Positions 1 to 12,625 of a stretch of DNA of 62,260 nucleotides are shown in pieces (position 1 is the stretch's first letter; each line of letters begins with the position of its first letter). Made by a program: the position numbers and the translations under genes. Under the pieces are notes generated by a model. It saw only the letters and a program-made list of their open reading frames with translations. It was not told the origin of the DNA and searched no databases. Source of the DNA: an uncultured delta proteobacterium (GTDB taxonomy: Bacteria > Desulfobacterota > Binatia > UBA9968); contig CAVWLW010000012.1 of NCBI GenBank assembly GCA_963755715.1, forward strand, positions 1 to 62,260, read 5' to 3'.

Positions 1-70
1 GGCCTCCTTCGCCGTGCTGGCGCTGACCGCGGGCGAGCGCTAATCCCTGCCCCGTTGATGGGAGGCGGGC

Positions 71-888
71 ATGGATATCGGCACGGAACGGTTGATCGGG
101 CGAGCAAGGACGGCGCCATCGGCTGGGTGATCTTCAACAACCCGGCCCGCCGCAACGCCATCTCGGTGGACATGTGGGAAGCGATCCCGCCGCTGATGGC
201 CGCCTTCGCCGCCGACCCGGAGGTGCGGGTGATCGTGCTGCGCGGGGCAGGGCGAGACGACATTCGTCGCCGGGGCCGACATCTCGCAGTTCGGGGACCA
301 ACGCACCGGCGCGCCGAGGCGTCGAAGCGCAGCTATGACGCCCTGACGGGGGCGGCGGCCTTCCCAGCGCCTTGAGCCATGTGGAAAAGCCGATGATCGC
401 CATGATCCAGGGCTTCTGCATCGGCGGCGGCTGCTGGCCGTGGCCTTAACCGCCGACATCCGCACGCCGCGCTGCGGAGAGCTCAGGTTCGCCATTCCCG
501 CCGCGCGGCTGGGTCTGGGCTATCACTTCAATGGGATGTGAAGGGGCTGATGGACCTGGTCGGCCCGGCCTTTGCGCGGGAGATCATGTTCACGGCCCGG
601 CGGCTGAACGGCGCCGAGGCGCTAGGTATGGGCCTGCTTAAACCGCGTCCGTTCCGTCCACCGAGGTGGAGGCTCCTGGTGCGGGAGTACGCCCTGGCAT
701 GATCGCCGAAACGCGCCGCTGACGGTGAAGGCCGCCAAGCTGGCAATGGTCGAGGGGCTGAAGGACCGCGAAAAGCGCGATATGGCCGCCGTCAACGCCG
801 CCGTCGCCGCCTGTTTCGAGAGCGAGGATTTCAAGGAGGGCCAGAAGGCTTTCCTGGAGAAGCGGCGCCGGCCTTCCAAGGGCGCTAG
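71..888 (+). CDS. Enoyl-CoA hydratase/isomerase (crotonase) family protein, several frameshifts
   Basis: Pieces GWVIFNNPARRNAISVDMW, VRVIVLRGAG, KPMIAMIQGFCIGGG, ESEDFKEGQKAFLEKR across frames; GGAGG RBS at ~61-65. Confidence 0.85.
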
Positions 889-1034
889 ACGCTCGAGCGG
901 GTCGCGGGCGGAAAACCGCTTCACACTTTTCCTCGACCCGCTCCCGGACAACACGGCCAAGCTGTCTTGCCGAACTCCCTCGCTCTGGGCGTCTGATCGC
1001 GACACAGAGCATCAGACTCGCGGGGAACCACGCC

Positions 1035-2364
1035 ATGGCCGACAAGGGCCGCCATTCCAACCTGACGCTGGCCGCCTTCGCCGCGCCCTGCCTGCCGATG
1101 GCGGCGCTGGGCCTGCCGCTGGTGGTTCAACTGCCGACCTTCGATTCCGACGTCGTCGGCATCCCGCTGGGGACGGTGGGGATGATCTTCCTGGTTATCC
1201 GCTTGCTGGACATTGGCGTCGATCCATTCCTCGGCAATCTGATGGATCGCACCCGCACGCGCCTGGGCCGTTTTCGGCCGTGGCTGCTGGCGAGCATCGC
1301 GGTGATGGGTCTGGCGACCTGGCTGTTGTTCATGCCGCCAGGCAAGGTTGGGCCGGTGTTCCTGTTCGGCTGGCTGCTGGTCGTCTACGTCGGCTTTTCG
1401 ATGTCGGTGCTGGCGCAGACCTCCTGGGCCAGCGTGCTGTCGCCGGACTACGATCAGCGCGCCCGCATCTACGGCTTCTGGACCATCGGCAATGTGCTGG
1501 GGATCGTCCTGGTGCTGCTGATCCCGGTGATCATCGCCCGAAAGGGGCGGTGGGCTGGCCGAAGGGGTTCGAGGCATGGGGTGGTTCATCCTCATCCTGC
1601 TGCCCCTGACCATCGGCCTGGCCGCCTGGCGCGTCCCCGAGCCGCTGCCGAAGGAGCCCAGCAAGCCGCAATGGAGCGCCTATATCGAGTTCATCAAGAT
1701 GGCCTCGGTGCGCCGGCTGATGTGGACGGACCTGCTGTTCGGCCTGGCGCCCGGCGTCACCGGCGCCTTGGCCCTCTACTATTTCCAGTCCGCCAAGCAC
1801 CTGAGCCTGTTCCACGCCCAGCTGCTGATCTTCCTCTATTTCGCTTCCGGTCTGGTCGGCGGGGTGCTGTGGAGCTGGCTGGCGACCAAGATCGGCAAGC
1901 ACAGGGCGCTGGCGGCGGCGGGCGTGATGTTCGCCATCGCCTATCTGGGCGTCGCCGCGGTGCCCCCGGGCGACGACAAGTTCGTGCTGGCGGCCTTGTC
2001 GATGGTCGGCGTCGGCATTCCCTTCTGCGCCGGTCAGGTGCTGCTGCGCGCCATGCTGGCCGACGTCGGTGACGAGGATCGGCTGATCTCGGGCAAGGAC
2101 CGCACCGGCCAGTTATTCGCCCTGCTGACCGCCACCAACAAGATCGGCTACGCCCTGGCGGCGGCGACCTTCCTGCCGTTGCAGTGGGCCGGATTTAACC
2201 GCGACGCCGCGGGCGTGCAGACCGAACAGGCGCTCAATGCTCTGCAACTGTTGTTCGTTGGCTTGCCGGTTGTCTTGTGGCGGCGGCGGCGGTGATCTAC
2301 TCCTTCCCCATGAACAAGGAACGCCAGACCCGAGATTCGCCGTCAGCTTGAGGCGCGTGCGTGA
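1035..2364 (+). CDS. MFS transporter (MFS_2/GPH sugar:cation symporter-like), frameshifted at ~1550 and ~2280
   Basis: ORFs 1035..2072 and 1576..2295 join; DPFLGNLMDRTRTRLGRFRPW motif, many TM segments, MLADVGDED motif. Confidence 0.85.
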
Positions 2365-2632
2365 CAGACGAGCCGCTCGACCGCCTGCTGGAGATCATGG
2401 CGCGGGCTGCGTGACCCGTGTCGCCGGCTGCCCGTGGGACAAGGAGCAGACCTTCGCCACCATCGCCCCCTACACCATTGAGGAGGCCGAACCCAAGAAG
2501 GTGGCCGACGCCATCGAGCGCGGCGACCTCGAGCGAGTTGAAGGGACGAACTGGGTGATCTGCTGCTGCAGGTGGTCTTCCATGCCCGCATGGCGGAGGA
2601 GATGGGCGCCTTCGACTTCGCCGACGTGGCCC
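2361..2632 (+). pseudogene. mazG: Nucleoside triphosphate pyrophosphohydrolase MazG, N-terminal part only (truncated at junction)
   Basis: [69 protein letters not shown]; homology stops abruptly at ~2632. Confidence 0.85.
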
Positions 2633-2777
2633 GTCCGCTTCGCCGTAGCTCACAGTGTCCTCTCTGCCGGCATGACGAGATTCGGTTTCTCCGCAGACTA
2701 TAAGCCAGCCGGCGCCCGGCCTCAAGGATGCGGTTCGCCGCTGTCGCACTGAAGACGTGCGCGATACGACCGTGCGA

Positions 2778-2885
2778 GATTTTTGGGGGGGGGCATGAGT
2801 CTGTACTTTACGAAATTCTAGACGAGGTCGGGTTGGTTATCCCCTGACTCAGTTCTTGCCGGTCAATTTCCCGTTGGCGGAAATC
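2778..2885. repeat. Direct repeat B, copy 1 (~105 bp)
   Basis: GGGCATGAGTCTGTACTTTACGAAATTCTAGACGAGGTCGGG...TTGGCGGAAATC nearly identical to 5651..5753. Confidence 0.95.
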
Positions 2886-2941
2886 CAGGCTGCCATGGCC
2901 GCCGGCCGCTATTGCATCCGCCGGGGCGACAATAAATCGAG

Positions 2942-3125
2942 TAGCGGCGAGCTCTGCTCTTAGTACACGTCGAACATGCGCTGAATCTCATCGGCATTAT
3001 TCGTCTTGGTGAGCGCCAACGAAAGCAGCAAGCGCGCCTTCCACGGCTGTAGATTATCACCGGCGACAAAGCCCCGTCGCTGCAATCCCGGACTTCTCAC
3101 GACGCGGCCCGACGCGACACGGCTG
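2942..3125 (-). pseudogene. Displaced 3' end of asparaginase gene, copy 1 (166 nt coding plus 18 nt downstream)
   Basis: Matches 9445..9610; ends ...IQRMFDVY-TAA. Confidence 0.95.
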
Positions 3126-3238
3126 TAAGAAGCTTGGGTCTAAGTTTTTCAATGACACATCTCGGCGAGAAGGCGGTGCCAAGGCGGAAGGTCGCCGTGA
3201 TTGTATCATGATCCGGGGTTGACTAAACTCGTAAGCCG

Positions 3239-3563
3239 ATGAAAACATTTGCGTGTCCTTATCTTGGCGGCGAGGTCGAGCTGTCGGACGAGCGGGAGAG
3301 CCACATCGCTGAAGCGCACCCGGAGCTATTCCCGGTGTACGTGGATCAGATCAGCGACACTTTGCGGATCTGGACCAAGTCCGGCGAAGCGGACGCTTCG
3401 CGAATGCACGGCTGTTTTCAAAATGGTATGATGATCTCGTGAAAGGAAAGCATCTGGTGTGGTCGTTGTCAGTGAGGCTCCGCCCAAGAGCAGAGATTGG
3501 GTGGTCACGGCTTATATTACCAGGCGAATTCCGGAAGGAGACGTGGAATGGAAGCGAAGCTAA
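3239..3563 (+). CDS. Putative RelE/BECR-like toxin of a DUF2283-associated type II TA pair (frameshifted)
   Basis: VELSDERESHIAEAHPEL...DQVRRS..F...LFSKWY...VVVVVS...WVVTAY; overlaps start of DUF2283 gene. Confidence 0.65.
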
Positions 3564-3786
3564 CGTTTAAATACGATCGCCAGGGCGACATTCTCTACAT
3601 CAATAAAATCACGCCCTATCCTGAACAGGAATCCGAAGAACTTGGGGACGAGGCATTGCCAGGCTCAACCCGAAAACCAGGGAGATCGAAAATCTCGAGG
3701 TATTGTTTTTCTCGACCCGGCTCCTGCGCAGCGATTTGTTTGAACTGCCGATCACGGCGGAACTGCGGCTAGCGGCGAAAAACTAA
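3548..3786 (+). CDS. DUF2283 domain protein (putative antitoxin), frameshifted
   Basis: MEAKLTFKYDRQGDILYI...ARLNPKTREIENLEVLFFS; YD...DILYI is typical of DUF2283. Confidence 0.75.
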
Positions 3787-3948
3787 ACACAAATAACAAG
3801 GCTTGCAATTACATGGTTGTTTTCCGTTCAAGTCGTTCAACCGAATGAGCGTTAGACAATGTTCGAGGTCGTGCTAGAAAAATGACAACTCTCGTCCATT
3901 GTATCCCCCGCTGCGACATCGTCGGCGGGCGGCGGCGATGATGATTGA

Positions 3949-4403
3949 TAGCGGCGAGCTCTGCTCTTAGTACATGTCGAACATCCGCTGAATCTCATCG
4001 GCATTATTCGTCTTGGTGAGCGCCAACGAAAGCAGCAACCGCGCCTTCCACGGCTGTAGATTATCACCGGCGACAAAGCCCCGTCGCTGTAATCCCGGAC
4101 TTCTCACGACGCGGCCCGACGCGACACGGCTGCACAGGTACATGGAGCATGCCTTTTTCTTTGAAGCATTTATCGAAGGCGGCGTCTTCGGCCGGCGTCG
4201 GGCGGCCGGCGCCCGTGCCGGCGCTGACGATGCCTTTAGCCCCGGCTCTCGCCGTGGTTCGAATTACCGCGCCGTCGGCGCCGACGTAGGAAAGCACCAT
4301 GTCGACGCGCGGCAGTGATTGGAGGTTGCGCACGTCGAATTCTGTCGCCATCGTGTGCTTGCGCACCGGCTGATGATAATAAACAATTTTGCCGTCGCCG
4401 TCG
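3949..4403 (-). pseudogene. Displaced 3' end of asparaginase gene, copy 2 (437 nt coding plus 18 nt downstream)
   Basis: Matches 9445..9880 with substitutions; ends ...IQRMFDMY-TAA. Confidence 0.95.
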
Positions 4404-4656
4404 CCCAACCATGTCCATCTGCTCGTTGAAAGCTCCGAACAGCCACTGGCGAAATTCATGCAAGGGCTGCAACAATCTTACAGCCATATATTTCAATCTT
4501 AGACATCGCAAGGCAGGACACGTGTTTGAAGGGCGCTACAAAGCAATCCTTTGCCAGAAAGACCAGTATCTCCTTCAGCCGATCCGTTATATTCATCTCA
4601 ACCCGGTGCGCGCCGGCATGGTAAGAAGTCCGGAGCGCTATCGGTCACAACGGTAA
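4404..4656 (+). mobile_element. Internal fragment of a REP-associated tyrosine transposase (RAYT, Y1/HUH family)
   Basis: PNHVHLL (HUH), LAKFMQGLQQSY..YFN.RH...GHVFEGRYKAIL, RYIHLNPVRAG (catalytic Tyr region); no N-terminus. Confidence 0.85.
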
Positions 4657-5093
4657 CAGCCCTTCAGCGACAACGACTTACAGGCACTAAATCTCAACCG
4701 GTGACAGATTGAATCTGTTACCGATGCTAAAACCGCTCTCGGCGGCAGCCTTTTGCACGCCTCAGCATGCCCCTCCTCTGGAGAAATCCGGAAACGCAAA
4801 CTAGTCGCGATTCTTCCTAAATTCAAATCTTTTTAGGCGCTCGTGGTGGCTATGACCAGACTTTCAATACAGCCTGTAGGTTTGATCAGGACAGATAAAG
4901 TTAAATCATTCTGGTGCGAATGGCCGTTATCGCAATTTAGCCTTACGCGAAGAATCTCGGCGCCGTACTTACATGCGAATCTATTGAAATATCGCTCGCA
5001 GTGTTTGTCCCAGAAGGACGAGAAGCAGTCTATTGCAATGTGGCACACAGAAACCAGCCTACAGGGCTAAAAAAAAAATATAACGAAAAGAAT

Positions 5094-5109
5094 TGGTATA
5101 TCTGTTGCA
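5094..5109 (+). promoter_or_regulatory. Candidate sigma-54 (-24/-12) promoter
   Basis: TGGTATATCTGTTGCA fits TGGCAC-N5-TTGCW spacing; lies upstream of 5325..5611. Confidence 0.5.
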
Positions 5110-5324
5110 TCCTGCTGAATATGTGCCGCCCGGCGAAAACGTTTTTTCGGCGGAATCAAGAAATCGGAGTACGATCGGAAACTGCCCACGAGTTCGTGAA
5201 TAGAAAGATCGTCCATACTCGGCTCCTAGGCGTTAGTTGGACCGACAGTCGCTGGAAGTTACCGCGTAAGGATGTCATTGGCTGGGGAGCCAGCAAGATC
5301 ACTAGATATAGGGAGGAGACTGTC

Positions 5325-5611
5325 ATGACCGATCAGAAAAACCGATCCTCGACTTGGAAACAGAGCGGAGCGTAGACGCTCAGTGTTTAGTGTTGGAGAT
5401 GGCAGGGAAAACCTGGCATGTTCCTTTCGACACTCTGCAGGCGATTCCGCGGGTGGGAGAGAAAATTCGTATTGCCGGTGGAAGCACCGGCAAAGTCGCC
5501 GAAGTCGAGTATGAATTCGCGGCTGAGAGGGCGCCGATCGAAGTGGCGAGGGAGATGCCCGCCGCCGCGTCATACGCGCGACCCGTCCGAATTGTAATCA
5601 GACTGTCGTGA
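5325..5611 (+). CDS. Small hypothetical protein (homopolymer frameshift near N-terminus)
   Basis: GGAGGAG RBS before ATG 5325; joins ORF 5354..5611 (IPRVGEKIRI...GKVAEVEYEF). Confidence 0.65.
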
Positions 5612-5650
5612 TGGGTACGGCCGGCTCATTTCTGGCCCGAGAGCAAGCGG

Positions 5651-5753
5651 GATTTGGGGTCGGGCATGAGTCTGTACTTTACGAAATTCTAGACGAGGTC
5701 GGGTCGGTTATCCCACTCAGTTCTTGCCGGTCAATTCCCCGTTGGCGGAAATC
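5651..5753. repeat. Direct repeat B, copy 2
   Basis: Near-identical to 2778..2885 (few substitutions, 3-nt indel). Confidence 0.95.
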
Positions 5754-5949
5754 GTGGCCTTGGTGAAGGTGGGAAACAACAAGCCGGAGAAAGCCGTGAC
5801 GATCCGCATCACGTACCCCAACTCATGCTCGTTGAAATATGACGAGTTAGATTGGCTGGCGCTTACGAGCGGGCGTACTCGCCAAATGGCGATCAGCTCA
5901 CATTTCCGTGCCTCGCACGCTTTCGTATCTCCCGCCGGGCGGTCCATAT

Positions 5950-6195
5950 TTATCCCGCTGACAGCGACTTCCAGGGCTTTTCGATGTACGGAAGGGCGTC
6001 GGAATACGAATCTGTCGCCCGGTCGAATAAAAGTTTCGCGTCGGCATCGTCGCAGAGGATCTCCACGATCGCCTGACCCGTCGGCGATTCCAGAACCAGA
6101 GAGTTTTTCAAGATCACGTATTCACGGCTCATGAGCGGGCATGCCTGCAAAAAACCGGAGTGGACTTCCACGGGCATTGCTAAAAGCGATTTCAT
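5950..6195 (-). CDS. Small hypothetical protein; resembles 56377..56679
   Basis: MKSLLAMP...SREYVILKN...VEILCDDADAKLLFDRA...ALPYIEK; start just downstream of MEDS stop. Confidence 0.6.
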   Translation of the reverse strand: MKSLLAMPVEVHSGFLQACPLMSREYVILKNSLVLESPTGQAIVEILCDDADAKLLFDRATDSYSDALPYIEKPWKSLSAG

Positions 6196-6199
6196 CCAA

Positions 6200-6790
6200 T
6201 CACCAGGCAGGCGAAGCGGGGTATAACTCCCAATACTGATCATTTCGGCAGACACGGAAGTGATGACGTTGAAAAACGTCAACGTCCCGAGGACTGCGTA
6301 GTCTCGTTACCTCGTAACTACACAGTGCAAGGACTCGGCGCTCCTTGAAAGCCTCCTGTGCGCTTCGCTCGTAGTCCATAAAGGCTTCCCAGGCTCTCGG
6401 TTCCACGAACGACGTATTTCCGGCAATCCGTAACCCCTCGTAGCCGCGCTCCAAGGCTCGCCGCTCTTCCTTGAGCCAGCGGTCGATAGTCGTATCCTGG
6501 AGCGATCCCGCTGTCACGTACCAGTCATCGAACTCGCATATGCTCAACTGTTCGCTGAAGATTTTGCGCCCTAGATCGGGAACTACGTGCGCAAGGTCCT
6601 TGCGCGCGTCCTCTGAGAAGTAGGGTTCAGACGCAATCCAAATACAACGTTCGTTGTTTTGTAGTCCCGTCGCGAAATAGGGAATTAAAACTTCGGCGAG
6701 ATCCGCAGCATTTTCATAGAGATGGCAGAAGTGGCTGCCCCAGGGAATTTTGCCAATGTTTGAGATGCCGGACTCGGTGGTAAAGCTCAT
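6200..6790 (-). CDS. Stand-alone MEDS sensory domain protein
   Basis: ESGISNIGKIPWGSHFCHLYE..DL..VLIPYF..GL..NERCIW...GYEGLRIAGN...FMDYE...LALCSY. Confidence 0.85.
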   Translation of the reverse strand: MSFTTESGISNIGKIPWGSHFCHLYENAADLAEVLIPYFATGLQNNERCIWIASEPYFSEDARKDLAHVVPDLGRKIFSEQLSICEFDDWYVTAGSLQDTTIDRWLKEERRALERGYEGLRIAGNTSFVEPRAWEAFMDYERSAQEAFKERRVLALCSYEVTRLRSPRDVDVFQRHHFRVCRNDQYWELYPASPAW

Positions 6791-7053
6791 ACTCTTTCTT
6801 ATTGGACTTGAATTGGTCTGGTCTGAGTTAGCTGACTCGATTGTACGGACTTTCCGCACTTACATCCGTAATAACGTCAACGATTAGATTTTGGATTTGC
6901 ACTCCGCAAGAAATTCCTTCGGCGCCGGGATTAGGAAGTTTTTTGGTTCTGGATAAATCCAGCGGCAGAGTTTTAGCGTTTAGTCTCTATAGGCATACGA
7001 AATGGAAAGCATCCCGGTTTCCGACCTCTTGACCGGCAGAATTGCGCCGCGGC

Positions 7054-7690
7054 ATGATCGCCGTCGTGACTGCGCCGAATACCGAAAACGCTCGGGGATA
7101 TTCTCTTTGCCGATAAGTCAAAGGTTCGCGTATCCGAGGATGAGTGGCTACAGCTCGTCCGAGCCGTCGCCAGCGGTGATCAGCGCGCACTGCATTCCCT
7201 TTACGAGCAAACGCATCGAATCGTTTTTACGTTGATCGTGCGGATAACCGCGAATCGAGAAACTGCCGAAGAAGTCACGCTCGATGTTTTCTATGACGTG
7301 TGGCGAAAAGCCTCGACCTATGATCCTGCTAACGGGTCGGTCATCGGCTGGATCATGAATCAGGCGCGCAGCAGGGCGATTGATCGCCTGCGATTCGATC
7401 AGAGAAAAAAACGAGTGAACACATATCCGGACAGCTTGCGTCCAACAACGGACATTGTGGATCCTCAACAAGCCTTTCTGTTTGAGGAGCAGAGCCGCCT
7501 GTTGCGGAATGCGCTTGAGGTCCTGACTCCAGAAGAACGAAATGCGATCGAAACCGCATTTTTCTCTGAATTGACTTATGAAGAAACGGCCAGGAAGTTG
7601 AATCAACCTGCTCGGAACCGTGAAGACGCGAATCCGCTCCGGACTGGGAAAACTCCGAGAAGCGCTAGGAAGGAAATTGAAGGGTATGAA
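7054..7690 (+). CDS. ECF sigma-70 factor (SigK-like), frameshifted
   Basis: GDQRALHSLYEQ, AEEVTLDVFYDVWRKASTYDPANGSVIGWI...ARSRAIDRLR, LTYEETA..L..P.GTVKTRIRSGLGKLR. Confidence 0.85.
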
Positions 7691-8269
7691 CTCAAAACCG
7701 GACACACACAGTCAAGAGCATCTGGATCTCGTGTTCCTGTTTGCATTGCAGGCGCTTCCTCCGCGCGAGATCGCTTCGGTTGAAGCTCAAATCTCGTCAT
7801 GCGAGGATTGCCGGCAGGAAATCGAGACGCTCCGGCCCATTGTCCGCTCGTTTGTCGGCTGGTCCACCGATGTGTTGCGCCCCGCGGAATCTCTATGGGG
7901 CCGGCTTGCGAAGCGAATCGCCAGCGAAACGGACACGCAGCCGTTCGTACCTCCGTTGGAAGCGCCGGCTTAAACCAGAGTGGGAGGAAGCGGCGCCAGG
8001 TATCCACGTCAAAATACTCGCGAGGAACACGGAAAACGACAGCGTGAGCATGTTGGTCCGGCTTGATCCGGGAACCGATTATCCCGGGCACAGGCATGCG
8101 GGCATCGAAGAACTGCATCTTCTTCACGGCATATTGAAGGTCGATGACCGAACACTCTATCCCGGCGATTTCATCCACAGCGAGGCGGGCAGCGTCGATC
8201 ATCGTGTGTGGAGTGAAACCGGCTGTACCTGCTTTCTTGATGACCTCGACGAAAGACGCCCTTTTCTGA
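7686..8269 (+). CDS. Anti-sigma factor with ChrR-like cupin domain, frameshifted
   Basis: N-terminal CEDC anti-sigma-like motif; cupin LVRLDPGTDYPGHRHAGIEELHLLHG...PGDFIHSEAGSVDHRVWSETGC. Confidence 0.8.
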
Positions 8270-8410
8270 TTTCTGGTTGTGGCTGAGGTTGCAAGCATTT
8301 CTGGTTGAGTTTATCCGACCGGGGCCGCAGGACCGGGAGCTCGAATCTCAACTTCGGGGGTCCTGCACATGGTTCCAATCCAGCTCCAATGGGAGCGTAC
8401 ACTGAAAGCG

Positions 8411-8737
8411 ATGGATGACGTAAGGGAGTTACGCATGGAATTACAAAAAATTACGGAACAATCGGAAATACCGGTTTTGGAGTCCTTAGCCATCATAGAG
8501 AAGACGAATCGACAGCTATCGGAGGCGCAATCACCGCGGGTAAGCATCAGCAACACGGCACCAGCTTCCTACGCAATGAAGACGTCTGTAAGACCCGCGT
8601 TGTTGAGTCGTGAAGAGATCAACGAGCAACTCGATCGAGTCGCAGCTGAGTTTTTACGCACTCGCAGCGAGAAGTCTCGTCGCGAGATGCTCGATTTACG
8701 CAATCGGTTGAAAAAATTCGATGAGCGAGAAATCTGA
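8411..8737 (+). CDS. Hypothetical helical protein
   Basis: Open frame 8369..8737, coiled-coil-like composition; no recognised motif. Confidence 0.4.
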   Translation: MDDVRELRMELQKITEQSEIPVLESLAIIEKTNRQLSEAQSPRVSISNTAPASYAMKTSVRPALLSREEINEQLDRVAAEFLRTRSEKSRREMLDLRNRLKKFDEREI

Positions 8738-8823
8738 TTTAGAGCAGGACATATCGCTTTACTAACCCTTTTTGCCGCACTCCTCTCGCCAATAGTCACT
8801 TTATTTGGCGCGTTTGATTCTCC

Positions 8824-9096
8824 TCACTTGGGGGCGATCATGCGCTTGGTGAAGGCGCTGGCTTCCTTTGCCGAAGTATTGCACCGGCGCATTCGATCGC
8901 TTCGTTTCTGGTGTGTCCACGCCCATCAACCGCAAACGTACGCCACTGCCGAGAGAAACGTGTCGCCGACAATTACGCGACGGACGTACTGAACGTCGGT
9001 TGCAGCGACACCGGGGTCGGACGGGTCGAAGAACGCAACGAACAGCGCGACGAAGGCAACCCGGGCCAATGACCACGTCCAAGTGCGGCGGACCAT
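8824..9096 (-). pseudogene. Thermonuclease (SNase-like) gene remnant, N-terminal third
   Basis: Signal-like N-terminus, VRRVI.GDT, RLMGVDTPETK...VQYFGKEASAFTK then stop. Confidence 0.7.
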
Positions 9097-9444
9097 GACG
9101 CATTCTCCGACTCGGGTATGCTGTCCGTCAACCGCGTCCGCATGGAGCGCGATTGTAAGGGGCGACAAGATTTCCCACGCCGCGCCTAAAAAAGGAACTG
9201 TTATAAGTGTCTTGTGAGAGAATAAGCGAGTCGCGGGACAGGGTTTCACGCAGCGGCACAAAAAAAAGATGGCAAGACCCCTGCAGGCAGATCAACGAGC
9301 CCCACCCTTTAGGCAAAGCCTGCTCGATTGGTAACCAAAGTGGTCTATTCCAATGTCGTTCGCGGCAGAGTTGTTTTAAAACTGTCCGTCAACCAATCCG
9401 CAAACTATGGGTAAAGTTATAGAACAAGCCGAAGTATCTTGCTT

Positions 9445-10450
9445 CTAGTACGTGTCGAACATCCGCTGAATCTCATCGGCATTATTCGTCTTGGTGAGCG
9501 CCAACGAAAGCAGCAACCGCGCCTTCCACGGCTGTAGATTATCACCGGCGACAAAGCCCCGTCGCTGCAATCCCGGACTTCTCACGACGCGGCCCGACGC
9601 GACACGGCTGCACAGGCACATGAGCATGCCTTTTTCTTTGAAGCATTTATCGAAGGCGGCGTCTTCGGCCGGCGTCGGGCGGCCGGCGCCCGTGCCGGCG
9701 CTGACGATGCCTTTGGCTCCGGCATTCGCCGCTGCTTCGATCATCGTGCCGTCGGCGCCGACGTAGGAAAGCACCATGTCGACGCGCGGCAGTGATTGCA
9801 GGTTGCGCACGTCGAATTCTGTCGCCGTCGTGTGCTTGCGCACCGGCTGATGATAATAAACGATCTTGCCGTCGCCGTCGGCGAAGCCGAGCGGTCCCAG
9901 ATCCCGCGATTGAAACGCTTCCACGCGATAAGTCGCATTTTTCGTCACGTCGCGGCCGTTGAAAATCGTGTCGTTCATCACCAGCAGACAACCGCGGCCC
10001 TTTGACTGCGGATCGGCCGCGACTTTGATGGCGTTGACCACATTCAGGTAACCGTCGGCGCTGATCGCCGATGCCGGGCGCATGGAGCCGACGACGACCA
10101 CGGGCTTATCGGTTTTTAACGTCAGGTTAAGAAAATAGGCGGTCTCTTCGATGGTGTTGGTGCCGTGCGTGATGACGATGCCGTCGGCTTTGTCTTCGTC
10201 GAAGATCTTGTGAATCGTGCGCACCAAGTCGAGCCAGTCTTTGTCCACCAGCGCGTGGCTCGGCAGTCGGCGAAACGGGAATCTCTTGCACTTCGGCGAT
10301 GTCTTTCAATTCGGGCAACTGCTGGAGCAGTTCGCCGTCGTTCAAGCGTTTGCCGGCTTCGATGTACCAGGCGAGATCGAGACGGTCTTTGCCGACCGAG
10401 TCGATGGTGCCGCCGGTTAAAATCAGTGCGACTTTGGGTAAATTGGCCAT
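9445..10450 (-). CDS. L-asparaginase/glutaminase family protein (one frameshift at ~10280)
   Basis: LTGGTI, GIVITHGTNTIEETAYFL, GSMRP...SADG..N, RDVTK, GAKGIV.AG.GAG, DNLQPWKARLLL. Confidence 0.9.
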
Positions 10451-10602
10451 GAAAAATCCTTCCTTCGTTATTTGATGTTGTAGACTATGTTTTTATCCGT
10501 GCGACGGATTCAAGTTCAAGCTGACGGCGAACTATTGAAGCGTTCAAAACGTTCAAGCCGTTCATCGCCTGCGCAATCGAGATCGGCGAGCACGAAACAC
10601 GA

Positions 10603-11547
10603 TCACGTCTTCGCGTAGGCTTTCAAACTCGGCAACGCTTCGCGGGCGAAGCGTTCGATCTGTTCCTGACGCTCGGGGTAGTGGGGAATCATGAACTGGA
10701 GGCCGATGTGGATGACGCCGACGTCGATGAACTCTTTCAATCTTTCGACGACCTGCTCGATGCTGCCTTTTAGATAGTCGGTTATTTGCGGGCCGGCGGT
10801 GGCAGTCAGCTCGACGGGGAGGCAGCAGGCGAGTTCGACTTCGTCCGGATTGCGGCCGGCTTTCTTGGCCTCGGCGCGGACGTTTTCGAACCCGGCGGCC
10901 AATTCCTTGGGCGTGATTTTTACAAAGTAGGGAAACCAGGCGTCGCCGTACTGACCGGCGCGGCGTTGCGCGTATTTGCCCTCGCCACCGACCCAGATCG
11001 GCAGGCGCGGCTGCTGATAGGGTTTCGGATTAAAGGCGATGTCGTCGGCGTTGTAGTATTTGCCGTGAAAGCTGATGTGTTCCTCGGTCCAAAGTTGCTT
11101 GAGCAAAGTTAACTGCTCGTCGGCAACCTTGCCGCGCTCTTTGAACGGTGCGTTCATGGCGGCGAATTCTTCTTCCATCCAGCCGACGCCGACGCCCAGG
11201 ATGAGCCGCCCCGTCGAAAGCTGGTCGATGGTCGTCGCGATTTTCGCCCAGTGCAGTGGATGGCGATAGGGCAGCACCATCACGCTCATGCCCAAGTGAA
11301 TTTTTTCCGTGCATCCCGCCAAAAATGCCAGACACGTGAGCGTGTCGAAAAACGGCCGATCCGGCGGCACGATGAAAGTCGCTTCCTTGCTGTAGGGATA
11401 AGTGGTTTCGATCTTCCACGGCATGACGAGACGATCCGCCGCCCACACCGAATCGTAGCCGAGCACTTCGGCTTGTTGCGCCGCTTGCATGAGCGTCTTG
11501 CGGCTCGCCGCGCGGCCAGACACCGGCAGAAAAACACCGAACTTCAT
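10603..11547 (-). CDS. LLM-class (probably F420-dependent) oxidoreductase
   Basis: MKFGVFLP, GYDSVWAADRL, LPYRHP...AK..ATIDQLSTGRLILGVGVGWMEEEF, PKPYQQPRLPIWVGG. Confidence 0.9.
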   Translation of the reverse strand: MKFGVFLPVSGRAASRKTLMQAAQQAEVLGYDSVWAADRLVMPWKIETTYPYSKEATFIVPPDRPFFDTLTCLAFLAGCTEKIHLGMSVMVLPYRHPLHWAKIATTIDQLSTGRLILGVGVGWMEEEFAAMNAPFKERGKVADEQLTLLKQLWTEEHISFHGKYYNADDIAFNPKPYQQPRLPIWVGGEGKYAQRRAGQYGDAWFPYFVKITPKELAAGFENVRAEAKKAGRNPDEVELACCLPVELTATAGPQITDYLKGSIEQVVERLKEFIDVGVIHIGLQFMIPHYPERQEQIERFAREALPSLKAYAKT

Positions 11548-11647
11548 GATCGTCCTCCGAGAGCTTTCTTGACACTGATCCTGGTGAAAGCTACTTTCCG
11601 TTTCATTATCTCGATCTCTCTCGTTCGAATAACACAAAGGAATCGAA

Positions 11648-12625
11648 ATGACTATTTGGCTCAGGATCTTGATCGTCGTCGCGCTTTTATGCGTGGCGTC
11701 GAACAACAACGCGCAGGAGCTTGTGAAAACGCCGGTGCAAATCCCCGCGATCACGCCGGCCGCGACCGCTTTTGCGGTTGCCCGGGACCGGGGTTATTAC
11801 CGTCAAGAAGGGCTCGATGCGCAACTGATCGTCATGCCCTCGGCGCTCGGCACGCAAGCGCTGCTCGGCGGAAACGTGAAATTTTCCACCGCCGGCGGCG
11901 CGGGACTGCTGCCGATCCTGCGCGGCGCGCCGATCCGCTTCATGTTTACGACCTTCAATCGCCCGATGTTCTGGCTTTACTCTCGTTCGGATATTCGATC
12001 GGTGGAAAATCTCAAAGGAAAAAAAGTCGGCGTTTCGAGTCTCGGCAGCGGGCCCGACTCGCTCTTGCGGGAAATCTTGAAAAAACACGGGTTGGACGGC
12101 GGCCGCGATGTTGTGATTCTACCGGTCGGCTCGGGCACGGCGCGCTTTTTTGCGCTGCAGGCCGGCACCGTCGACGCCGCGATGCTCTCGATTCCGGCGA
12201 ATTTGATGGCCCAAGACGCTGGGTTCCGCGAGTTGGTTTCGTTCATCGATCAAGAATGGATCGAGTTGCAGGGCACGATAAACGTCACGGACCAGCTGCT
12301 GGCGGCTGATCCAACGTTAGTAGAAAAGTTTATCCGCGCGACGCTCAAAGGCTTTATTCATTTCCGCGATCTGCGATCGCAGACGATTGGCATTTTGATC
12401 CGCTTCCTCAGAGTCAAAGAAGATGCCGCGGCGAAGATCTATGAGTTGATGCGTCCAAGCCTGACTCAGGACGGCATTGTCAGCGAAGAAATCCAACGTA
12501 AATCTCTTGAGCATGTGATCGATCGTGTCGGGCTCAAAGAGCCGCCCCGGCTCGACAAGATCTTCGACTATTCCATGGCGGTGAAAGTTCGCAATGAATT
12601 ACGCGCCAAAGGCTGGAAGCCTTAA
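11648..12625 (+). CDS. ABC substrate-binding protein, NMT1/THI5/SsuA-like
   Basis: Signal peptide, GYYRQEGLD, LKGKKVGVSSLGS, ALQAGTVDAA. Confidence 0.85.
   Translation: MTIWLRILIVVALLCVASNNNAQELVKTPVQIPAITPAATAFAVARDRGYYRQEGLDAQLIVMPSALGTQALLGGNVKFSTAGGAGLLPILRGAPIRFMFTTFNRPMFWLYSRSDIRSVENLKGKKVGVSSLGSGPDSLLREILKKHGLDGGRDVVILPVGSGTARFFALQAGTVDAAMLSIPANLMAQDAGFRELVSFIDQEWIELQGTINVTDQLLAADPTLVEKFIRATLKGFIHFRDLRSQTIGILIRFLRVKEDAAAKIYELMRPSLTQDGIVSEEIQRKSLEHVIDRVGLKEPPRLDKIFDYSMAVKVRNELRAKGWKP

Follow-up and report, generated by a model that had tools for sequence, protein, structure and literature searches.

Displaced copies of an asparaginase gene end in soil Candidatus Binatia: probable scars of insertion with long target duplication

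Introduction

Incoming DNA can displace the end of a resident bacterial gene, and we describe here a locus at which the end of an asparaginase gene (copy A) recurs twice downstream as displaced copies, B and C. The locus lies in a 62,260-nt stretch of DNA from an uncultured delta proteobacterium (GenBank assembly GCA_963755715.1, contig CAVWLW010000012.1), which is called the window below and whose coordinates are used throughout. The window makes up the opening 62 kb of contig C12 in its source genome, G000, a metagenome-assembled genome (MAG) of 7.4 Mb in 76 contigs with 4.2% contamination. The relatives compared with it are soil Candidatus Binatia MAGs, for which G labels denote genomes and L labels denote loci or contigs. 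The displaced ends probably reflect insertion with long target duplication, most simply by homology-facilitated illegitimate recombination (HFIR), with two serial events yielding the order A-E2-B-E1-C, in which E1 and E2 are intervals of cargo. This type of scar is already known; what is notable here is that it recurs at a single gene and is frequent in this genome.

In described cases of insertion with long target duplication, inserts are flanked by long direct repeats of variable length (46–423 bp) that are single-copy where the insert is absent, and the cases set out in the relevant passages of that work contain no other mobile genes, have repeats that often overlap the 3' end of a gene, and carry addictive restriction-modification systems as cargo (Furuta, Abe and Kobayashi, 2010, PMC2853133, in which Nobusato et al., 2000, is cited on long target duplication). 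HFIR has been described by de Vries and Wackernagel (2002), Prudhomme et al. (2002), and Meier and Wackernagel (2003), as cited in PMC5361080. In the C-terminal displacement of Rhs proteins (PMC2935791) and in type VI secretion system (T6SS) effector/immunity arrays of Vibrio cholerae (PMC5361080), serial arrays are built as each incoming module drives the earlier gene end downstream along with a piece of the conserved region, with no integrase in the process as outlined in these papers, where either HFIR or circular intermediates are proposed. In the case of prophage e14 in icd, as summarized in PMC13626634, a replacement 3' end brought by the insert keeps the gene working and the old end persists as the icdC pseudogene, the differences being largely synonymous.

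Comparison with Described Systems

The asparaginase locus is like insertion with long target duplication in that its repeats are longer than 30 bp, vary in length (about 105 to 588 nt of coding sequence), and are single-copy at empty sites (L181, L190, and L195), and in that no integrase or resolvase is found in any interval. There are also differences, as the cargo here comprises metabolic genes and lone accessory genes as well as toxin–antitoxin pairs, one event is stacked on another, a single gene has been struck in many lineages, and in relatives the repeat copies are different alleles. The features shared with HFIR are a single homologous anchor combined with one joint at short microhomology (CGGG in L193), foreign DNA trapped by conserved DNA, and anchor copies of different ancestry, as seen from the synonymous excess in G014, G006, G003, and G023 (window, P=0.09). 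Laboratory products of HFIR, however, reportedly for the most part delete recipient DNA beside the anchor, whereas the joint here lies inside the anchor, so that the anchor's end is kept twice.

Rhs and T6SS displacement involves a variable toxin tip and its immunity gene and has a clear selective logic; here, in contrast, it is a conserved gene end that is displaced, and the cargo has nothing to do with the gene. Prophage e14 encodes a site-specific integrase of its own and uses a fixed attachment site; the asparaginase locus has neither, and the fragment starts vary from case to case. The placement of the newest cargo next to a fixed point, with older cargo outward, is reminiscent of an integron array, but IntI is absent (no match to PF00589 on C12 or on the asparaginase contigs of four relatives, the array lying 2.9 kb from the contig end), neither attI nor attC was found (no Rfam match in 1–12000, no attC-specific model having been run), and the repeated unit is a coding sequence of variable length. 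An earlier reading of the window, made from the sequence alone (the sequence-only reading), had proposed an integron-like array anchored on a metabolic gene; this was overstated, as the same scar occurs at other genes of G000.

The Array in the Window

The array A-E2-B-E1-C is located 2.9 kb from the start of contig C12. A repeat finder and BLAST agree on three pairs in direct orientation, namely 3962–4403 with 9440–9880 (95.5% over 443 nt), 2942–3125 with 3949–4132 (97.8% over 184 nt), and 2955–3125 with 9440–9610 (96.5% over 171 nt), and the gene ends are the sole repeats that bound the E1 and E2 intervals. Several observations of the sequence-only reading are thereby borne out: the 3' end of the gene recurs downstream at 3967..4403 and 2960..3125 in the same orientation, the three copies end differently (FDTY-TAG, FDMY-TAA, and FDVY-TAA), and 18 nt 3' of the stop codon are common to copies B and C (3949..3966 and 2942..2959, minus strand) and absent behind copy A.

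Copy A (9445..10450, minus strand) is the full-length gene, with Pfam matches to Asparaginase (153.5 bits) and Asparaginase_C (96.6 bits) on the open reading frame (ORF) at 9445–10248 and the N-terminal piece on the ORF at 10127–10450. The gene had been taken to be intact, but in this assembly it is split by a 1-nt frameshift near 10277–10281; of four other metagenomes, the three with contigs at 10280 lack that base, and the asparaginase genes of relatives are open frames of 334 aa. Contigs from other soil metagenomes show single-base indels (one of them 2-base) relative to the window at 3365, 3457, 4487, 4783, 4936, 5339, 7967, 8238, 8768, and 10280, with the extra bases at 3365 and 3457, in E1, present in three metagenomes. 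Because these contigs lack the base at 10280 and differ at about ten more places, most frameshifts here are read as assembly or strain indels; such indels explain most of the split ORFs and suggest indel errors in the assembly.

Copy B (3967..4403, minus strand) is a displaced stretch of the gene's final 437 nt that carries 11.5 nonsynonymous changes and a +1 frameshift. Its 5' edge abuts, head to head, an internal 243-nt fragment of a RAYT-type Y1 transposase gene (4403..4645, plus strand) that is cut at both ends and is 97.5% identical to part of an intact 315-aa gene on contig C23 (58813–59054; Y1_Tnp, 64.2 bits), and at both fragment edges metagenome contigs continue into an intact RAYT gene. 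Since this 5' edge adjoins a fragment that is itself cut at both ends, copy B appears to have been eroded later, in line with one of the two explanations first offered for the unequal copy lengths, and it was probably once longer. Copy C (2960..3125, minus strand) retains the last 166 nt, and its edge with E1 is covered by a 512-nt contig of another study (2979–3488, 98% identity).

Interval E1 (3126..3948, plus strand) holds two small genes at 3239–3570 and 3497–3783, both frameshifted in the assembly. In locus L119, a full asparaginase gene is directly followed by E1, and this arrangement is collinear with copy B and its E1 cargo at 93.1% over 1162 nt; copy B is therefore read as the remnant of a once complete gene. 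L119 is the only related locus that holds any G000 cargo, and it shows the state before the second event. No empty site for the window array itself was found among the related loci.

Recurrence at the Asparaginase Gene in Relatives

About 12 independent cases of partial 3' copies were found at the asparaginase gene in relatives. Protein searches located such copies on the same contig, downstream of a full or longer copy, in G000 (two), G014, G003, G006, G018, and G023, that is, in 6 of 25 genomes of the genus, and located none in 16 genomes of two sister families; a DNA search found the gene end in 20 of 31 genus genomes. Further cases are L047 and L095 among 78 loci of species-representative genomes, and L154, L168, and L193 among 80 metagenome loci (53 with at least 1.5 kb downstream), L047 and L154 representing one event. 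Orphan gene ends on other contigs occur in G012, L113, and L114. Partial 3' duplicates with variable cargo thus recur, as had been anticipated, but shared breakpoints do not: the fragments measure from about 105 to 588 nt, nearly all differ in length, and no breakpoint is common to independent cases. The homology of G000 to every related locus ends at the stop codon, and the asparaginase gene end is therefore a synteny break.

Integrases are absent from these loci. Phage_integrase and resolvase families gave no match in 106 ORFs of 13 loci, 22 window ORFs, and 19 further ORFs, and PF00589 gave none on the whole asparaginase contigs of G000 (C12), G014 (904 kb), G018, G003, and G006; the mobility genes in the intervals are limited to a Y1_Tnp gene in G018 and the RAYT fragment in the window. 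Cargo in relatives includes ParE (G006), Fic (L047/L154), AbiEii (L168), and the DUF2283 pair (E1, L119), many other cargoes being ordinary metabolic genes. Some inserts consist of a single gene of 0.6–1.5 kb (G006, L193, and L168), and the Fic insert and its fragment have been kept across about 10% sequence divergence (L047/L154).

One case, a trio of metagenome loci, displays the event itself. L181 is an empty site in which the gene is directly followed by FtsX; L193 is a filled site with the gene, a DUF4143 ATPase, a 163-nt gene end, and then the FtsX flank as in L181; and L178 is the parent of the cargo, without the fragment. The joint in L193 falls at the 4-nt microhomology CGGG between the cargo parent (L178) and the gene (L181). 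When the empty sites L181, L190, and L195 are compared with L193, the fragment and flank are collinear with the gene end and flank (83–90% over 434–548 nt). Only two joints, that of L193 and that between copy B and the RAYT fragment in the window, could be tested for microhomology.

The ancestral flank likewise stays with the displaced copy in G003, G006, L113/L114, and L193. A conserved hairpin element follows the displaced copy, rather than the full gene, in G003, G006, and L113/L114. This element, which lies about 25 nt after the stop codon (L021:5705–5870 and relatives), is non-coding and folds strongly (z = -6.75), belongs to no Rfam family, and is laid out as three 15-nt arms, two inverted and one direct. 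It is probably the terminator region of the gene and not a recombination site, although the arm layout resembles that of a recombinase site. The possibility that the element is a genome-wide repeat was rejected, as G000 has only a remnant and five relatives have one to five matches per genome (self-overlapping reverse matches included).

Origin of the Displaced Copies

The differences between copies bear on their ancestry. Between the full gene and the displaced copy, synonymous changes account for 10/10 in G014 (P=8e-7), 20/24 in G006 (P=5e-10), 7.5/12 in G003 (P=0.0025), and 12.5/26 in G023 (P=0.01). Because the differences are mostly synonymous, the copies in relatives are once-working gene ends of different lineages. 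The sequence-only reading had drawn the same conclusion for the window itself, where it is not supported: copies A and B differ by 8.5/20 synonymous changes (P=0.09). Among the 13 full-length genes compared, the last 146 residues of asparaginase hardly vary, and where the orphan ends have M and V these genes all have Thr. As the orphan-specific residues in the window replace invariant residues, they reflect decay after displacement and not allelic variation.

The Same Scar at Other Genes of G000

Self-comparison of G000 gave 52 local direct-repeat pairs (at least 85% identity), of which 29 consist of a gene 3' end repeated downstream, in a classification that was automatic and crude and that includes noise from paralog families and antisense frames. 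In 13 pairs the repeat ends within 6 nt of the stop codon; two of these are the asparaginase pairs and 11 are at other genes. The ratio pN/pS was below 0.35 in 11 of the 18 pairs tested. No integrase or transposase family was found at the scar loci among the 150 ORFs, out of 177, that were scanned, and the cargo at these other loci includes PIN, PIN+MazE pairs, and metabolic genes. Because the same scar occurs at other genes of G000, the only thing that sets asparaginase apart is that it sits at a synteny break.

Individual examples, with gene 3' ends repeated 0.6–10 kb downstream and ending at the stop codon, lie on contigs C32, C35, C41, C43, C56, C59, C61, C24, C54, C68, C1, and C33. A three-copy array lies behind an O-methyltransferase gene on C41 (87179, 90104, and 96899), and PIN toxin cargo is present at C59:142–143 kb and C68:22–23 kb.

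Proposed Mechanism

Insertion by HFIR would proceed as follows. The asparaginase stop codon would be the edge of a hypervariable stretch of the chromosome, and DNA of a related strain would enter, bringing the conserved gene along with any sequence that followed it in the donor. The first crossover would be homologous and fall inside or upstream of the gene, and the second joint would be illegitimate, connecting the far end of the foreign cargo to a chance point in the recipient's own gene. The gene would stay whole with the donor's end, and the recipient's old end would become a 5'-truncated, silent fragment beyond the cargo and would then decay, with no dedicated recombinase needed. The core of the sequence-only reading, that incoming DNA with its own gene end recombined in repeatedly and pushed the old end downstream without an integrase, is upheld by the recurrence, the flanks, and L119. 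We infer how the DNA entered, which of the two window events came first, and which enzymes would make the illegitimate joint; G000 has homologs of ComEC and DprA and three Ku genes, which is circumstantial, ComEC and DprA also being present in 10 and 11 of 14 control genomes.

Several points weigh against this account. The synonymous excess is not significant in the window (A–B as given above; A–C, P=0.27), where dN/dS is low in power. In G014, about 450 nt of the two copies is near-identical and all differences fall in the final 130 nt or so, which calls for either gene conversion at a later time or a crossover placed downstream of the joint. Scars at 3' ends outnumber those at 5' ends in G000 (29 vs 11 of 52), and a symmetric mechanism predicts no bias without selection. 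In the window, it is copy A, and not copy B or C, that holds the start of the ancestral downstream element; displacement of an old end thus suits the window less well than G003 or G006, and the order of events is tentative. The joint between copy B and the RAYT fragment at 4403, with 1 nt of microhomology and a RAYT gene cut at both ends, may represent a later deletion rather than the original joint, and the account gives no reason for the RAYT-type genes beside the displaced copy in G000, G018, and L119. None of the listed metagenome pieces spans the junctions at 2633/2634, 2772/2773, or 4403, such gaps in contig cover counting as evidence neither way. Finally, natural transformation is putative in this uncultured group.

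Alternative Explanations

A recombinase-free cassette cycle is possible, if rather unlikely. Cargo with one copy of the gene end would loop out by RecA-mediated recombination between direct repeats, move as a circle or fragment, and re-enter the same gene in another strain by a single homologous (Campbell) crossover, the fragment serving as an address label and toxin–antitoxin cargo stabilizing the insert. This would account for the often addictive nature of the cargo (ParE, Fic, AbiEii, and the DUF2283 pair, together with PIN or PIN+MazE at two other G000 loci), but many cargoes are ordinary metabolic genes. The retention of the Fic insert with its fragment across lineages would also be expected of such a cycle, yet this persistence is equally explained by descent. 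The C|E1 joint occurs at 98% identity in another study's metagenome, and a circular intermediate is among the proposals made for Rhs tips in PMC2935791; however, no circle or excision junction was seen among metagenome contigs, which cannot show rare forms. Moreover, a Campbell product predicts divergence along the whole overlap, which the G014 pattern does not fit. If true, the cycle would be a principal way in which these large soil genomes acquire genes, seen in G000 at a dozen or more genes.

Slightly less likely still is that the arrays are decayed integrative elements, in which integrase-bearing islands entered the gene 3' end site-specifically, each with a replacement end, and the integrases were lost or acted in trans. 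The combination of a restored gene, cargo, and a displaced C-terminal pseudogene does match e14/icd/icdC as presented in PMC13626634, the cargo of E2 is visibly degraded, and a conserved inverted-repeat element lies behind the stop codon in many relatives. An integrase beyond the contig edge is also possible for G000, whose array is within 2.9 kb of the contig start, but neither the approximately 12 cases nor the complete contigs of five genomes yielded one. Inserts of a single gene (0.6–1.5 kb in G006, L193, and L168) are likewise difficult to reconcile with former islands, as are fragment lengths that vary by case, the L193 joint at a 4-nt microhomology inside the gene, and the same scars at unrelated genes.

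Duplication in place, in which a portion of the locus would have been copied within a single chromosome and the two versions would later have diverged and become interrupted, was already disfavoured and is improbable. Consistent with it, the fragments in G000, G014, G018, and G003 are nearest to their own genome's gene (92–98%) and parts of E2 have paralogs in the same genome; the fragments in G006, G023, and G012, however, are no closer to their own gene than to those of other species, a silent copy should change at random whereas 10/10 and 20/24 changes are synonymous in G014 and G006, the intervals have no sequence in common, and an empty site and a cargo parent exist. An assembly artefact, in which strain variants of one locus were strung together, is very improbable. 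In its favour, contamination of the G000 MAG is 4.2%, 1-nt indels against other samples are numerous, the first 2.6 kb is 66% G+C (against 56%) and without a relative in the genus, and some junctions lack independent support. Against it, the same structure occurs in MAGs and contigs of different projects with contig names that point to different assemblers, a functional allele of another strain would not show the frameshift and the altered invariant residues seen in the fragments, and a contig of another study spans C|E1.

Cargo and Neighbouring Features

The post-stop spacer behind copy A and the start of the conserved downstream hairpin element occupy 9402..9444 (minus strand), where homology with G018 extends 43 nt past the stop codon and the motif is common to G015, G018, and L120–L122. 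Interval E2 (4646..9401), characterized by Pfam and by BLAST against the genome, has no homolog in the 78 and 80 related loci or in 15 oriented loci, and parts of it have paralogs elsewhere in G000. It contains an SNase remnant (8801–9103, minus strand; 21.8 bits over 31 of 107 profile positions), an ORF at 8369–8737, a split anti-sigma gene with zf-HC2 and a ChrR cupin (7620–8286, plus strand), an ECF sigma gene identified by Pfam (7232–7783, plus strand), MEDS (6200–6859, minus strand; 113.7 bits), a repeat named X2 (5653–5758), a stretch that BLAST places at 89% identity to contig C51 (4939–5646), and small ORFs. The MEDS, ECF/anti-sigma, SNase, and RAYT assignments of the sequence-only reading all stood, and its toxin–antitoxin pair in E1 is weakly shown: the second gene is a DUF2283 match at 21.4 bits, below the cut-off of 23 (the L119 ortholog reaches 33.2 bits), and no Pfam family matches its partner even at E values as high as 1.

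Just beyond copy C lies repeat X1 (2782..2890), with a run of nine G, which pairs with X2 at 93–95% as a 108-nt direct repeat and may mark a third, eroded displacement event. Farther out, a 119-nt element (2634..2751) is the distal limit of what is tied to the array. This element, taken as 2634–2772 (119–139 nt, 64% G+C), has a 98% copy in G000 at C50:92695–92813, is found in other metagenomes in at least two other contexts that differ on both sides, and may be a small mobile element. Positions 1–2633 have 65–70% G+C, against 56% for the genome, and carry frameshifted enoyl-CoA hydratase and MFS_2 genes and, by eye, an apparent truncated MazG gene with no Pfam match; a search with this 66% G+C contig start in 31 genus genomes gave short motif matches only, and this stretch either arose as a misjoin where the contig ends or is foreign DNA that became trapped. 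In run X5, a contig of depth 2 connects 9419 with 2934, as a C-type end followed by an A-type flank, and is not relied on. Rfam gave no match in 1–12000 at E up to 1 and none at three relatives' loci at the gathering score, and a tRNA scan found only two tRNA-Ser genes near 60–61 kb, unrelated to the array.

RAYT-type Y1 transposase genes or fragments lie on the opposite strand beside displaced ends or cargo in three lineages (window 4403–4645, L023:8002–8556, and L119:2381–2614), and another such place is C50:102991–103266 in G000; Y1_Tnp matches number 9 in G000 and 18 in G018. RAYT was rejected as the agent of displacement, given that the proteins of G018 and G000 share only 30% identity and that the copy in G000 amounts to an internal fragment.

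Among the relatives, three copies (87–88%) of a 310-nt unit surround the displaced copy in G014 (L021:7058–7367, 8190–8499, and 9394–9696) and include a 77-aa ORF of no known family. L113 and L114 are two contigs of one MAG that are 91–93% identical over about 7 kb, both with an orphan gene end, and their likeness reflects a large duplication or else a mixture of strains in the bin. This asparaginase is also present, at 77–87% protein identity, in Xanthobacteraceae and other alphaproteobacterial MAGs (L057, L058, L062, L063, L065, and L069–L078), whose DNA homology to G000 is confined to the gene, from start codon to stop codon, a pattern that points to single-gene transfer between phyla.

Concluding Remarks

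The asparaginase locus provides unusually complete natural evidence for gene gain without mobile-element enzymes, in that one site has been struck many times across the genus, in relatives the repeat copies are provably different alleles, and in one case the empty site, the filled site, and the cargo parent are all available. For annotation, it serves as a warning that a short orphan gene end found after an intact gene is a scar of recombination, and not an att site or a new element. Overall, the findings suggest that such scars, often with toxin–antitoxin genes, are common in an uncultured phylum of soil bacteria with large genomes.

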